A DNA stretch of 12,681 bases from Candidatus Aenigmatarchaeota archaeon (lineage in GTDB: Archaea; Aenigmatarchaeota; Aenigmatarchaeia; JACPZZ01): contig JAZDLW010000024.1 of assembly GCA_043801595.1 (NCBI GenBank), positions 1 through 12,681 on the forward strand. Direction: 5' to 3'. This document shows, one piece after another, positions 3,101 to 8,550 of this stretch. Each line of letters opens with the position of its first letter. Position 1 is the stretch's first letter. A program made the translations under genes and the position numbers. The notes beneath the pieces are model-generated. The model saw only the letters and a list, made by a program, of their open reading frames with translations. It searched no databases and was not told where the DNA came from.

Positions 3101-4722
3101 TGGCTGTTGTTACATTCGACCGTACTGACTTTGAAAACTTGCTCGGCAGAAAATTAAAGGATAACGATTACAAAGACCTTATACCGATGATCGGCGTAAC
3201 CACGGAAGAGCTGAACAAGGATTCGGTTTCGTTCGAAGTCTTCCCCAACAGGCCTGACATGCTTTCTTCGGAGGGCTTTGCGAGAGCGCTCAAATCGTTC
3301 CTATGGGGCGACCAACAGAAAAAATATGAGTCAGGCAAAGTGTTCGGAAGCATAACTGTGGACAGATCACTGAGAACTATCAGACCTTATGTGGTGTGCG
3401 CGGTTGTGCGAAACATAAAACTTACCGACACGTCGCTAAGGTCACTCATGCAGTTTCAGGAAAAAATACACGAAACTTTCGGAAGGAAACGCGCGCGGGT
3501 TTCGATCGGCGTACACGATATTTCCAAAATTGAATTTCCGCTGAAGTATGCGGCGTACGGGCCGGACGAAATTTCGTTCGTGCCGTTGGATTTTGACGAA
3601 AAGCTTACGCTCGGCGAGATACTTAAAAAACATCCGAAAGGGGTCGGGTATGCGTGCATTCTGGAAAACATGAAAAAATATCCTGTGATAACCGATGAAA
3701 AAAACCGAGTTTTGAGTTTTCCGCCGATAATCAACGGCGAATTAACAAGAGTCACGAATAATTCTAATAACCTTTTCATTGATGTGACCGGAACTTCGAA
3801 ACGCTACATTGAAAAAACCCTTGCAATACTGTGCGCATCGTTCATTGATCGCGGCGCGACAATCGAAAGCGTAAAAGTCATTTACGAAAAGCCGGAAATA
3901 ACGCCGAATATGTCCGCCCAGAAAATAAAGTTAAACGCGGGCTATCTGAACGAACTGCTCGATACTGACCTGAAAGAGGGTGAAATAAAGAAGATCCTTT
4001 CAAAAATGGGCATCGGATTTTCCGAAGGCGTCGCCTCTGTTCCGTGCTACCGTGCTGACGTAATGCACCAGATAGACATTGTCGAAGACGCGGCAATTGC
4101 GATCGGCTACGGTAATTTCATTCCGCGAATACCGAAAATACCCACTATGGCTGAACGCGACGCGCTGGCGGAAAAATGTTCCGCAATAAAGGAAATAATG
4201 ATCGGGCTGGGCGGACAGGAGGTCATTTCTTTCATACTCACAAACGAAAAGAGACATTTTGAAATGATGAACGTGAAAACAGAGGAGTGCGCGACTATTC
4301 TTAATCCGAAAACGGAGGACTATACAATATGCAGGAAATCGATAACGCCGTCGCTGCTGGATGTACTTAAGTCAAACATGCACAACGAATACCCTCAGAA
4401 GATATTCGAGGTTGGCGATTGCGTTTATGTTTATAAAAGCGAAACTGGCGCGATAAATGTGCGAAAGCTTGCATTCGCAACATCGCACCGCGATGCGGAT
4501 ATAAACGAGGTAAAATCGATTCTGGAAGCGTTTATGAAATTATCAGGCGAAAAGTACGAAATAAGGAATGCCTCGAATCCGTCGATGATTAAAGGCAGGT
4601 ACGGGGAGGTTTTTGCAGGTGAAAAGAAAATCGGCGCGATCGGTGAAATTGACCCGTCTGTCCTGAAAAACTGGGAACTGGAAAATCCTGTTGCTGTGTT
4701 TGAAATTTTGGTTGACTTTTAG
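3100..4722 (+). CDS. pheT: Phenylalanine--tRNA ligase beta subunit (archaeal type)
   Basis: True start is the ATG at 3100, overlapping the pheS stop (TAATG), giving MAVVTFD... and 540 aa. Motifs PNRPDMLS, QEKIHETFGRKR..SIGVHD, LSFPPIIN, YRADVMHQIDIVED and YPQKIFEVG. Confidence 0.97.
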   Translation: MAVVTFDRTDFENLLGRKLKDNDYKDLIPMIGVTTEELNKDSVSFEVFPNRPDMLSSEGFARALKSFLWGDQQKKYESGKVFGSITVDRSLRTIRPYVVCAVVRNIKLTDTSLRSLMQFQEKIHETFGRKRARVSIGVHDISKIEFPLKYAAYGPDEISFVPLDFDEKLTLGEILKKHPKGVGYACILENMKKYPVITDEKNRVLSFPPIINGELTRVTNNSNNLFIDVTGTSKRYIEKTLAILCASFIDRGATIESVKVIYEKPEITPNMSAQKIKLNAGYLNELLDTDLKEGEIKKILSKMGIGFSEGVASVPCYRADVMHQIDIVEDAAIAIGYGNFIPRIPKIPTMAERDALAEKCSAIKEIMIGLGGQEVISFILTNEKRHFEMMNVKTEECATILNPKTEDYTICRKSITPSLLDVLKSNMHNEYPQKIFEVGDCVYVYKSETGAINVRKLAFATSHRDADINEVKSILEAFMKLSGEKYEIRNASNPSMIKGRYGEVFAGEKKIGAIGEIDPSVLKNWELENPVAVFEILVDF

Positions 4723-5504
4723 CTATATAGGCTTCTTTCGATGCTTTGCAGCATCCTAAGTTTTGCATTGGCCTTTGCGGGCGTATATCTGAAGTGGCTG
4801 GCTCCGCATGCAAGTGTCAGATAGTCACCGTCCTTGGCGTGTTTTTTTAGATGTTCTATTATGTCTGCGACTGTTCTGAATCTTTTGCCTTTTCCAAAGT
4901 CCACACCCCATCCAACCCTTCCGCCTGATTCACGGAATTCGTTGTACTTCGAAGACAACATAATGTCATAAAGCGAAGCATCAAAGCTTATTGTTTTAAT
5001 TCCTATACCATATAACCTGTCCCATTCCATGTTCCCACATGTGTGTAAACCCAATTTCACACCGAGTTCCTTTACATCAGGGTTGTTTATCACAGGCGAC
5101 CAGAGATCAGGTAAAGCATCGTAGTTAGGATAAGTGCCCACACCAGGCTCGTCAATAAACAGGTCAATCTGATTAAGACCCAGCTCTCTGAAAGGGTGCA
5201 AAAGTACTGAAACGTGATTGTTAACAGCTGTGACAGCGTTATCAGCGCTGTATCCGTTTTGCATCAGCAGCACAACGCCTGGTGTTTGAAGTTTTACTGT
5301 TTTGCATCCCTGCTTTTTGATTTCACTCACAAATTCGTAAAGGCAAAGCATAGCACCCGGGAATTTTATATAGTCGTTCGCCATTGTTTCGCCTTTGGCT
5401 GTGAGTTCTGGCAGAAACGGCTTTCCGTGTTTAAAACTGTATCTTATTGCGCTGCGAACTTTCCGGTAAGGCGTAGACCCTATTCCTGTTATTACAAGAT
5501 TCAT
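4719..5504 (-). CDS. Core (single-barrel) cobalamin-independent methionine synthase-like protein, MetE C-terminal/UROD-like TIM barrel
   Basis: TGIGSTP, PFLPEL, VKLQTPG, FIDEPG, GLHTCG (HxC Zn ligands), ISFDA, GWGV and LACG (last Cys ligand). 261 aa. Its stop overlaps the pheT stop. Confidence 0.8.
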   Translation of the reverse strand: MNLVITGIGSTPYRKVRSAIRYSFKHGKPFLPELTAKGETMANDYIKFPGAMLCLYEFVSEIKKQGCKTVKLQTPGVVLLMQNGYSADNAVTAVNNHVSVLLHPFRELGLNQIDLFIDEPGVGTYPNYDALPDLWSPVINNPDVKELGVKLGLHTCGNMEWDRLYGIGIKTISFDASLYDIMLSSKYNEFRESGGRVGWGVDFGKGKRFRTVADIIEHLKKHAKDGDYLTLACGASHFRYTPAKANAKLRMLQSIERSLYS

Positions 5505-6366: not shown

Positions 6367-6533
6367 CGGGCCTGATGGGATTCGAACCCACGACCTTTTG
6401 CTTTCTTCCATTCTATTTTGATCAAGCTTTTTTGAAACAACGAAAACAATCATGTTTTCGTGCACAGGAAATCCATGATTTCCCGTGAGCTTGTTAGAAG
6501 GCAACCGCTCTGTCCAAGCTGAGCTACAGGCCC
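6367..6533 (-). tRNA. tRNA-Arg(UCU), intron-containing (5' exon 6533-6495, 3' exon 6402-6367), CCA not encoded
   Basis: Minus strand reads GGGCCTG TA GCTC AGCTTGGACA GAGC G GTTGC CT TCT A [intron] A GCAAA AGGTC GTGGG TTCGAAT CCCAT CAGGCCC G. Acceptor stem is a perfect 7 bp, D-stem 4 bp, and the T-loop is canonical. Anticodon TCT at 6498-6496, A20 arginine identity element in the D-loop, G73 discriminator. Confidence 0.96.
6403..6494 (-). other. 92-nt archaeal tRNA intron at canonical position 37/38 with a bulge-helix-bulge motif
   Basis: Central 4-bp helix CUUC (tRNA 32-35) pairs with GAAG (intron end). Bulges are U36-A37|A and A-A|A38, and the outer h' helix is CA/UG. The intron body holds two hairpins (6487-6463 and 6461-6440). 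Confidence 0.92.
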
Positions 6534-6613
6534 ACGTCAAACCTCTACCTTCGGTAATACACCTGAAATAAGTATATCAATGGCATGCTTAAGACTTTTA
6601 TAGATCAAGCTTT
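6420..6613. repeat. 11-bp direct repeat GATCAAGCTTT (6420-6430 inside the intron; 6603-6613 upstream of the tRNA)
   Basis: Exact match read directly from the sequence. Confidence 0.6.
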
Positions 6614-6637: not shown

Positions 6638-7504
6638 TCACTGATAATGTCTTTCCCAACCTTCTTCAAAGGCTATGGGATTTGTTCCTCTTCTTGAAAA
6701 TCGGATTTTACTCACATCTGGGTTGCGCAATTTCTTTTCTTTCTCGGCTTCGGCTATTCTGAAATTACTTGTTATTCCCCTGGCCTTATTTACAACGTCT
6801 TCGGGGTTAAACCCATTCAACCTCAATTCTTCGGCCGAAAGAGTTTCGCCACTGATCAGATCGACAACATATTTTGCGAACAACTCCCTGTTTAGCATGT
6901 GTCGCAAATGATTGTCGCTAGATAGATGTTCAACAACGCGGGACTTCAACGCTTCCAAATCAATTCCGTTTACATTAAACGACAACTTATCCGATTCTTC
7001 AAGTATACTCCTTTGCCAGGATTCGTATTCGGGGCGTGTCAATGTCCGTTCTCTGATTTTGCTCCTCGTCGTAGCATCAGAATTTCTGTATACGATATCT
7101 TTTTGCAGGTCTATCCTTTCGGCGGAATTCATCAACCTGATTTCATCGTCTGAGTAGCCCATGAGCTTTCTGAACCTCCTTTGCAACCTACGCTTCAATT
7201 CTGCGTTGTATTTTATTGCGAACCGCTTTGCGCCCTTTTTCTGGTCCTGAGGCAGGTGTTTATATTTTTCGTACAGATTTTTTGCCTTTTCATATGAAAG
7301 GTCTGTGGCAGATTCTGCAAGCCCGAGTCTTTGAGAGTTCTTTCTTGCCCTTGACAGGTGATCGTCACGGCTTCCGAAGGCATCAGAATAGAACAACGCG
7401 TCAGCGAATCCAACAACGCTCCTGACAAAATTTGGATCCTCTCCCTGCTCCACCAAGACGTATCTTACGTACTGCCTGACCGGGACTGATGCGCTTTGCG
7501 CCAT
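6638..7504 (-). CDS. Hypothetical protein, highly charged and predicted helical (288 aa)
   Basis: Long ORF filling the space between the ASCH gene and the tRNA. Start reassigned to the ATG at 7504 (MAQSASV...) because TTTAAATA lies 22 nt upstream and the longer start would overlap the ASCH gene. No family recognised. Confidence 0.8.
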   Translation of the reverse strand: MAQSASVPVRQYVRYVLVEQGEDPNFVRSVVGFADALFYSDAFGSRDDHLSRARKNSQRLGLAESATDLSYEKAKNLYEKYKHLPQDQKKGAKRFAIKYNAELKRRLQRRFRKLMGYSDDEIRLMNSAERIDLQKDIVYRNSDATTRSKIRERTLTRPEYESWQRSILEESDKLSFNVNGIDLEALKSRVVEHLSSDNHLRHMLNRELFAKYVVDLISGETLSAEELRLNGFNPEDVVNKARGITSNFRIAEAEKEKKLRNPDVSKIRFSRRGTNPIAFEEGWERHYQ

Positions 7505-7526
7505 ACCGAAGAATAACACAGTCAAA

Positions 7527-7534
7527 TATTTAAA
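7527..7534 (-). promoter_or_regulatory. Archaeal TATA box (TTTAAATA) for the 288-aa hypothetical gene
   Basis: Consensus TTTAAATA in the 40-nt intergenic gap, ending 22 nt before the ATG at 7504. Confidence 0.65.
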
Positions 7535-7544
7535 CTGCGCCGTC

Positions 7545-7994
7545 TTATCCGCTGTGCGCCAAGCGTTTTCGCACATTACCTATGTTTTCCGTGCAAATCC
7601 ACGCAGCCATTGCGCCAAACCCAGCCTTGTCTATTCCAAACGGCTTTATGTGTCTGGCGTTTTTTAGGAAAACCAGAACGCAATACTTCTTATTTTTGAA
7701 CATGCTACGAAACTTCGGAATGTCGCATTTCTCAATTCCGCCGTCTTTGCCGTATTTTGCCAATATTTTTGCAACCTTTGACCGGCTAAGATTTTCAATA
7801 TTGACAACCCTGTCCACCCTGGTGCGAATTTTGACAGGCTCGCCGCTGTTCTTGAAATAAACAATATCGTTTTTGCTTACCTTTTGCCACGGAACTGTTC
7901 TTTTCGAAAGCCACCTTGACTCTATCTTCTTCCGTCCGTCCAGAATTTTTTCAGTCAGGCCCCATTCTTTTTTCATTATTGCAATGTGGTCCAT
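7545..7994 (-). CDS. ASCH domain-containing protein (PUA-like superfamily)
   Basis: True start is the ATG at 7994: MDHIAIMKKEWGLTEKILDGRKKIESRW. Contains the ASCH GxKxxExR motif followed by NDIVYFK. 149 aa. Confidence 0.85.
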   Translation of the reverse strand: MDHIAIMKKEWGLTEKILDGRKKIESRWLSKRTVPWQKVSKNDIVYFKNSGEPVKIRTRVDRVVNIENLSRSKVAKILAKYGKDGGIEKCDIPKFRSMFKNKKYCVLVFLKNARHIKPFGIDKAGFGAMAAWICTENIGNVRKRLAHSG

Positions 7995-8078
7995 TTTAAA
8001 TCTATTTAAATTCCGCAAAATAAATAATCTTAGATCAGAATGGAAAAAACCACGTATCCGGCAACTTGGAAGACGTTT

Positions 8079-8184
8079 TTGACAGTCAATAATATGTCCA
8101 TTTGCCGATAAACGCCGACAAAATTTCCCTGATCTTGAATTTTTTCTTCCCTGTTGGTCTTCTGGAAAAGGCGAATTTTTTCTT
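8079..8184. repeat. Cluster of short repeats in the divergent intergenic region (candidate operator sites)
   Basis: Palindrome TTGAC-A-GTCAA (8079-8089), tandem GCCGATAAA/GCCGACAAA (8104-8112, 8114-8122), and exact 12-bp direct repeat GAATTTTTTCTT (8137-8148, 8173-8184). Confidence 0.5.
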
Positions 8185-8217
8185 GGTGTGGTTAACCGCT
8201 GGTCAGGATGTGGTAGT

Positions 8218-8550
8218 ATGAACCAAACAGCGTTTGGCGTTGCGAAGACGGAAGAACTTGCATCGCTCAAGAACCGCGTTGCGGACCTTGAACGAATGTT
8301 AAGAAGCGCCTCTATGCTGCGGTTGACGCAGAAAAAGAGGATTATCCTGAACGAGGTTGAAAAGATGTCTGGAAAAAAGACATTTACGTCAACCGTAGAC
8401 GCAGTTTCGAGAAACCTATCCATACCCTATTCGACAGTGAAATGGAACATGATGAAGATGCGTTCTTGCGGGCTTTTAGACGCCAACATCAGCATGCCGG
8501 TAACCGTTACAGAGGCGGGACGGATTGCGATACGCTTGAGCGAGGCGTAG
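8218..8550 (+). CDS. Winged helix-turn-helix protein with N-terminal coiled coil (putative transcriptional regulator)
   Basis: ATG at 8218 is preceded by GTGGT. Coiled coil EELASLKNRVADLERML, then a wHTH pattern LTQKKRIIL...VSRNLSIPYSTVKWNMMKMRSCGLL...VTVTEAG. 110 aa. Confidence 0.8.
   Translation: MNQTAFGVAKTEELASLKNRVADLERMLRSASMLRLTQKKRIILNEVEKMSGKKTFTSTVDAVSRNLSIPYSTVKWNMMKMRSCGLLDANISMPVTVTEAGRIAIRLSEA

Follow-up and report, generated by a model that had tools for sequence, protein, structure and literature searches.

A 92-nt tRNA-Arg(UCU) intron of an aenigmatarchaeal genome as a probable nest of dispersed hairpin repeats

The window analysed here is a stretch of 12,681 nt from a Candidatus Aenigmatarchaeota archaeon (contig JAZDLW010000024.1). 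Its sole Rfam match at E values up to 1 is a minus-strand tRNA at 6367-6533. Removal of nucleotides 6403-6494 yields a 75-nt tRNA-Arg with the anticodon UCU, and the removed segment sits between positions 37 and 38 of the intact tRNA, the canonical site of archaeal tRNA introns. ARAGORN missed this gene at default settings and mislabelled it as Pyl when a longer intron was allowed. The gene is flanked by minD on one side and an ORF of no assigned family on the other, with leuS nearby. It adjoins leuS also in G001, G002, G003, G005, G006 and G007; here, G000 denotes the genome of the window itself (an assembly 86% complete), G001 to G006 are its congeners and G007 is a relative outside this seven-genome genus set. 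Three ORFs close to the tRNA (6638-7576, 4719-5504 and 7545-8423, all on the minus strand) have no NCBIfam match, and the last of them is overlapped by a 120-aa ORF (8188-8550, plus strand) with a weak match to the TK0271 family. A second AAAGCTTGATC at 6603-6613 is at chance level (12 of 200 shuffles) and was not seen upstream of six orthologs; it was dropped. Read in the direction of transcription, the gene consists of the following parts, in which O and AB designate the two repeats described below.

6495-6533, minus strand: 5′ exon of tRNA-Arg(UCU), positions 1-37, anticodon TCT at 6496-6498 (Rfam RF00005, E 4.3e-08; identical in 7 of 7 congeneric orthologs)
6403-6494, minus strand: canonical 37/38 intron of 92 nt (exon reconstruction; the syntenic G007 ortholog is intronless)
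6488-6493, minus strand: first 6 nt of the 5′ arm of the O module (CAAGCT), from intron nucleotide 2 (alignment to O-only orthologs)
6438-6487, minus strand: AB twin-hairpin mobile cassette of 50 nt; insertion point T^T, no target duplication (exact 50-nt gap in four orthologs; ~38 genomic copies)
6463-6487, minus strand: hairpin of AB unit A, 11 bp with one G-U (fold and family alignment)
6438-6462, minus strand: hairpin of AB unit B, 9 bp plus a terminal TTG with a bulged T in the family; its loop is that of the tRNA-Cys intron copy (fold and copies)
6423-6437, minus strand: remaining 5′ arm, loop and 3′ arm of the O module (O copies, ortholog alignment)
6409-6422, minus strand: O tail ATCAAAA, the parallel complement of the T tract, and AGAATG trailer, common to intergenic O copies (genomic copies)
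6405-6408, minus strand: GAAG, predicted 3′ strand of the BHB central helix, pairing with C32-C35 at 6497-6500 (pair probability 0.70; GAAG in 6 of 7 congeneric orthologs)
6367-6402, minus strand: 3′ exon, positions 38-73, no encoded CCA (Rfam, exon reconstruction)

The intron folds strongly (MFE -28.9 kcal/mol, z -4.28, with none of 200 shuffles as stable). The first-pass annotation of this DNA had described two 25-nt units forming an 11-bp hairpin with one G-U and a 9-bp hairpin within a 6-bp helix; all of these elements are present in both the MFE and the centroid structure. It had also pointed to a CATG in each unit, which is there but incidental, since the loops differ freely from copy to copy. 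The opposite strand gives a fold of similar significance (z -4.09), so the fold alone is no pointer to an RNA.

At the splice junction, the central 4-bp BHB helix CUUC/GAAG is predicted to form between C32-U33-U34-C35 and 6405-6408 with a probability of 0.70, compared with 0.86-0.99 in four orthologs that carry O without the cassette. By sequence, the junction also offers the two 3-nt bulges, U36-A37-A and A-A-A38. The intron-side h′ helix comprises 2 bp at a predicted probability of 0.21, and U36 and A37 are predicted to pair competitively into the intron (0.69 and 0.57). Because this pairing exceeds that of h′, the canonical bulge is a minor conformer in the folding model. A single EndA gene of ~202-205 aa is found in 7 of 7 genus genomes, and we infer that EndA splices the tRNA-Arg(UCU) intron. 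The EndA of G000 (L169, 1195-1800) has a conserved basic insertion, which is kept in all seven genomes.

Among the seven genus genomes, the tRNA-Arg(UCU) exons are the same apart from one T-loop base, and the introns range from 30 to 225 nt. The first-pass annotation had proposed aligning the introns of relatives. An unguided alignment of six of the eight orthologs, with the unrelated introns of G002 and G003 (made of other repeat families) left out, separated the cassette cleanly: G001, G004, G005 and G006 lack exactly the 50 nt of 6438-6487 and keep the same host hairpin, and in G007 the whole intron is absent. From this alignment, the 6-bp closing helix is what remains of a 9-bp hairpin (CAAGCT^TTT-CAA-AAAAGCTTG, the caret marking the split) interrupted by the AB cassette. 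Within the genus, AB occupies the Arg(UCU) intron in one of seven orthologs, that of G000. The same pairing of an O allele with an O+AB allele was found at Cys (G000 versus G004), Arg(CCU) (G006 versus G005) and Gly(UCC) (G003 versus G004), each O+AB allele again in one genome only. The compared genomes are only 68-85% identical, so that no strain-level empty site of the exact Arg(UCU) allele was seen. An intergenic comparison of G002 with G005 revealed heavy turnover of other hairpin families and no clean O boundary.

Two further tRNA genes show a different kind of pattern. The tRNA-Pro(CGG) introns of G002 (L128) and G004 (L108) are near-identical, and G005, the sister of G002, carries a different intron (L091). 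Likewise, Val(CAC) of G002 resembles the intron-bearing G007 allele. These sequence patterns suggest tRNA allele exchange or binning.

The AB cassette is dispersed throughout the genome. Its hairpin-junction core occurs 19 times and its tail motif 22 times; neither was found in five shuffles. A looser definition gave 62 twins over all DNA examined, 39 of them in G000 (one an evident false call). A lack of further hairpin copies, which the first-pass annotation had named, together with a lack of covariation among orthologous introns, as the outcome that would leave just an incidentally folded intron, is decisively contradicted by the ~38 copies in G000, nearly all of which lie between genes and in both orientations. 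Relative to the flanking genes, 10 are sense, 16 antisense, 7 convergent, 5 divergent and 1 is at an edge; this mixture implies that AB is independent of which strand is transcribed. The stems are preserved through double changes that switch the pair type (A3: 30 C-G and 25 T-A; B5: 25 G-C and 36 A-T) and the loops vary, the copies being related and the pair counts hence not independent events. The excess of G-T over A-C, a point against the reading preferred below, is weak (23 versus 9, p 0.02, in non-independent copies).

AB is found mainly close to home. The 13-mer at its junction occurs 25 times in G000, 1-11 times in the six congeners, twice in G007, and 0-1 times in 33 other members of the class. 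Eight of nine records of AB-carrying relatives are assigned to Ca. Aenigmatarchaeota and one to an ‘uncultured archaeon’. Metagenomes yielded nine AB loci, none within a tRNA according to ARAGORN, AB was not found in viral contigs, and one DNA read run (word share 0.05) gave nothing informative, just short pieces and no joints. In the loci L211 and L212, an AB copy lies just inside an apparent right end that we take to be of the IS200/IS605 family; such IS elements could ferry AB between genomes. A second twin-hairpin family, distinct from AB, provides a 48-nt insertion with an in-frame stop in an IS200-type tnpA of G006 (L032, about 1465-1515), lacking from the G004 homolog (L031), and it also occurs beside AB in L216 and in spacers of G002 and G005.

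Several tRNA introns are among the AB carriers. The closest paralog of the Arg(UCU) intron is the tRNA-Cys(GCA) intron of the same genome, with 54 of 57 nt identical, and the two share a B loop that was not found in the intergenic AB copies of G000. The tRNA-Asp of G000 also bears AB, as judged by eye.

Two readings had been offered for the cassette at first, a small palindromic mobile repeat that uses the spliced intron as a neutral site, and a structured RNA released as a circle. Archaeal introns are ligated to circles upon excision and some long ones carry C/D guides. Together with the strong fold, this is what speaks for an excised intron acting as a functional, possibly circular RNA, such as a guide or a protein ligand, whose fold was selected for that role. 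We consider this very improbable. AB is present in one of seven congeneric orthologs, whose introns span 30-225 nt, there is no CTGA box D, and the only Rfam match up to E = 1 is the tRNA itself. The test for a box C/D guide was negative on all three counts: box, Rfam family and conservation of the cassette among orthologs. Moreover, the same units occur between genes in either orientation. The mobile repeat, in contrast, has its many copies, the orthologs with an empty site, its presence in other tRNA introns and its lack of strand bias behind it, and the reading of AB as selfish DNA, not a functional RNA, is well supported.

The intron outside AB is a repeat as well, which the first-pass annotation had not recognised. 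Without AB, the Arg(UCU) intron reads as A, a 9-bp hairpin, ATCAAAA, the trailer and GAAG AA. The hairpin and its tail, the O module, recur in 45 tail-confirmed copies in G000 and 95 over all DNA examined. A simple pattern finds 36 in G000, 4-24 in the congeners, 5 in G007, and 44 and 11 in two other families; it matched at least once in 20 of 41 genomes. Where both neighbouring genes point the same way, O is sense in 22 cases and antisense in 2, and it often starts at a stop codon or directly past the end of a tRNA.

Read in parallel, the O tail is complementary to the pyrimidine tract in the 5′ arm of its hairpin. Such a tail lies downstream of 133 of 212 hairpins, compared with 19 in the upstream control; these hairpins were defined without regard to the tail, and the set holds both readings of some palindromes. 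In the 43 informative cases, tails matched their own hairpin at 0.887, whereas swapped tails reached 0.709 ± 0.028 (maximum 0.794 in 2000); an antiparallel reading gave 0.823. Where the 3′ arm wobbles, in six listed cases, the tail tracks the 5′ arm. This symmetry would be compatible with a pyrimidine-motif triplex on the antisense strand.

O-type modules also begin intervening sequences in the D-arm and T-loop (L184 and L185 in G007; L053 and L072 in G006). The tRNA-Ala(GGC) introns of 23 and 17 nt (L102 in G004 and L077 in G005) resemble O remnants from which the hairpin is gone, and some ordinary-looking short introns may thus be decayed repeats. Multi-intron class II tRNA genes of 295-357 nt (L059, L090, L131; in G000, C10:2180-2322) keep conserved inner segments among variable hairpins.

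We favour, at a probability of roughly 0.85, a spliceable BHB intron whose interior is a neutral nest of selfish hairpin repeats. Direct observations underlie this reading: the copy number, the empty and filled alleles, the insertion point, the missing target duplication and strand bias, and the retained central helix. The older hairpin-plus-tail module O would form the body of the intron, and the younger 50-nt AB would then have entered the 5′ arm of the O hairpin, as it appears to have done at many intergenic hairpins and in AB itself. It would be tolerated there as EndA recognises nothing but the exon-intron junction and the entire interior is removed.

The insertion points speak to how AB moves. 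The junction is T^T in 33 of the 62 twins, where the host is an O-type or similar hairpin, and G^A in 11, which lie within the B unit of AB itself. Target-site duplications are at chance level (3 nt in 0, 5 nt in 0, 4 nt in 1 and 2 nt in 4 of 62). From the constant ends, the lack of duplication and the hairpin targets, we infer a structure-directed reaction on single-stranded DNA, most likely by an HUH/Y1-type enzyme acting in trans. Candidate enzymes were sought in several ways. In the 86% complete G000, Y1_Tnp (PF01797), the TnpB zinc ribbon (PF07282), integrase (PF00589) and RT (PF00078) are all absent. No RAYT gene flanked by repeats was found in the genus; in these incomplete genomes, Y1_Tnp is present in 2 of 7, as ordinary IS200-type genes without flanking repeats. 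A scan of small ORFs for HUH motifs gave none, and none of nine ORFs with repeats on both sides looked transposase-like by eye. Two RTs of the genus (L171, L172), present in 2 of 8 genomes, are by eye presumably DGR-like.

Such a result is also what would be expected if no dedicated enzyme existed and the repeats spread by gene conversion or template switching between hairpins, the Arg(UCU) intron having received O+AB as a copy from, for example, the Cys intron. The 54 of 57 nt shared by these introns, including the B loop not seen between genes, and the restriction of insertions to hairpins fit this as well. We nevertheless regard it as unlikely, since the precise and constant 50-nt ends, seen in unrelated hairpins, in AB itself and near the apparent IS200/IS605 right end of L211, are hard to obtain without an end-specific reaction. 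The Arg and Cys sequences rather suggest some copying between tRNA introns, probably by recombination, in addition to the insertion favoured here.

To see how far O takes part in other tRNA introns, we examined 173 tRNA gene calls, 15 of which could not be parsed and five isotype groups of which were dropped as misparsed. In the remainder, 63 genes are intronless at 37/38 (2 from G007) and 87 have an intron. Of the 87 introns parsed at 37/38 across the genus, 35 open with O no more than about 3 nt from the 5′ splice site, as counted by a strict regex with one probable false call and several misses. Intron presence varies on near-identical exons at Ala(CGC), Pro(UGG), Arg(GCG), Leu(CAA) and Gly(UCC). 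The tRNA introns of this genus have been colonised and rebuilt by repeats, and O, which opens many of them, is a candidate source of the DNA from which such introns arise.

A bolder proposal extends the nested-repeat explanation and does not replace it. In this proposal, O is an archaeal introner that inserts at or near 37/38, and its purine tail pairs with Y32-U33-N34-N35, making the insert spliceable at once. Besides the 35 of 87 introns that open with O, minimal introns amount to about one O, as in the 41-nt Arg(UCU) intron of G004, whose tail ends in the GAAG helix strand; six intergenic copies of this O subtype in G000 end in GAAG too, and the tail of Leu(UAG) in G007 passes directly into the helix strand. 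O-built introns are found in Gly(GCC) and Leu(CAG) of G007, genes for which 5 of 5 and 3 of 3 genus genomes, respectively, have no intron. Conversely, the Arg(UCU) and Lys(CUU) introns of the genus are absent from G007, and O-like Arg(UCU) introns occur in further families (L013, L023, L026). Against this stands the distribution of absences within the genus: the G002+G005 pair lacks the introns of Pro(UGG) and Arg(GCG), and that of Ala(CGC) is missing from G002+G003+G005, patterns most simply explained as losses on a three-protein tree (support 100% for G002+G005, 83% with G003 added, 35-80% at deeper nodes). In addition, O accounts for neither the 3-nt 3′ bulge nor most linkers, and the Arg(UCU) introns of G002 and G003 are made of other repeats. 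A target preference for C at -4, seen at 21 of 27 intron starts in the genus, failed in most G007 introns by eye and was dropped as a rule. As the within-genus absences map best as losses, we consider it less likely than not that O is a mobile, triplex-forming hairpin-plus-tail of ~30-35 nt that makes EndA-spliceable introns de novo, which would then nest AB and others. A 3-nt target duplication that builds the BHB was discarded, the 3′ bulges not copying positions 36-38.

Short extragenic palindromes in many copies and mosaics, as found here, are characteristic of bacterial REP/BIME/REPIN sequences, and the available text of PMC3733652 supports the likeness in that these are short, palindromic, mostly extragenic, multi-copy and lineage-restricted, with dimers and mosaics. 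According to the same text, some REPs insert into other palindromes and CGTC-type families have no known dedicated transposase. AB and O differ in being archaeal, in being nested inside tRNA introns and in lacking a flanked RAYT, and O has its parallel-complement tail. No GTAG or CGTC terminal tag is present at the ends of the 62 twins, 61 of which, all but the false call, begin with CA or CG and end with TTG (by eye). The label ‘REP/MITE-like’ given by the first-pass annotation thus describes the behaviour of AB well, but not a membership, for which the tag, the flanked RAYT and a target duplication are missing.

MITEs are non-coding, non-autonomous and dispersed, and eukaryotic Introner elements are repeats that make introns. 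AB and O share the first three of these features. Unlike MITEs, they lack a target-site duplication and a proper terminal inverted repeat, the ends having only CA...TG and an imperfect arm in common; unlike eukaryotic Introners, the splicing system is EndA and not the spliceosome, and intron creation by O is a candidate reading. Compared with a canonical archaeal 37/38 intron, the position, the predicted 4-bp central helix, the two potential 3-nt bulges and the presence of an EndA gene agree, whereas the length of 92 nt, the predicted h′ helix of just 2 bp and the turnover of the interior between congeners do not.

The transposed tRNA introns of Thermoproteales (Fujishima et al. 2010), as summarised in the accessible parts of PMC4090602 and bioRxiv 10.64898/2026.10.13.758758, are a parallel in that near-identical, BHB-constrained introns occur in different isotypes of one genome, here Arg(UCU) and Cys(GCA) with 54 of 57 nt. 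They differ from the present case, in which the sequence is a genome-wide repeat with far more copies outside tRNA genes and the cassette enters an existing intron. The latter source, a study of Asgard archaea, states in its accessible text that the route by which DNA enters archaeal tRNA genes as introns remains open, copying, mobile elements and reverse transcription having been tested without a general route emerging; the terms ‘intergenic’ and ‘palindrom’ have no match in that text. Integrative elements, a different route, are proposed in the accessible part of PMC3293823. That of bioRxiv 10.64898/2026.05.13.725050 holds no AB, O or related content, and no published description of these repeats was found in the openly accessible literature; subscription journals and bioRxiv supplements may hold one.

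In this genus, a donor-like sequence can be seen: the small repeats that build the tRNA introns also build the intergenic spacers, and filled and empty alleles occur side by side among the congeneric genomes. The same repeats disrupt tRNA annotation, as with the present gene in ARAGORN. The pattern points to a mobiliser of tagless, duplication-free hairpin elements. What makes the case of interest is the connection of dispersed repeats with tRNA intron turnover, through which the gain, loss and remodelling of introns can be tested by comparing genomes and assaying EndA in vitro.
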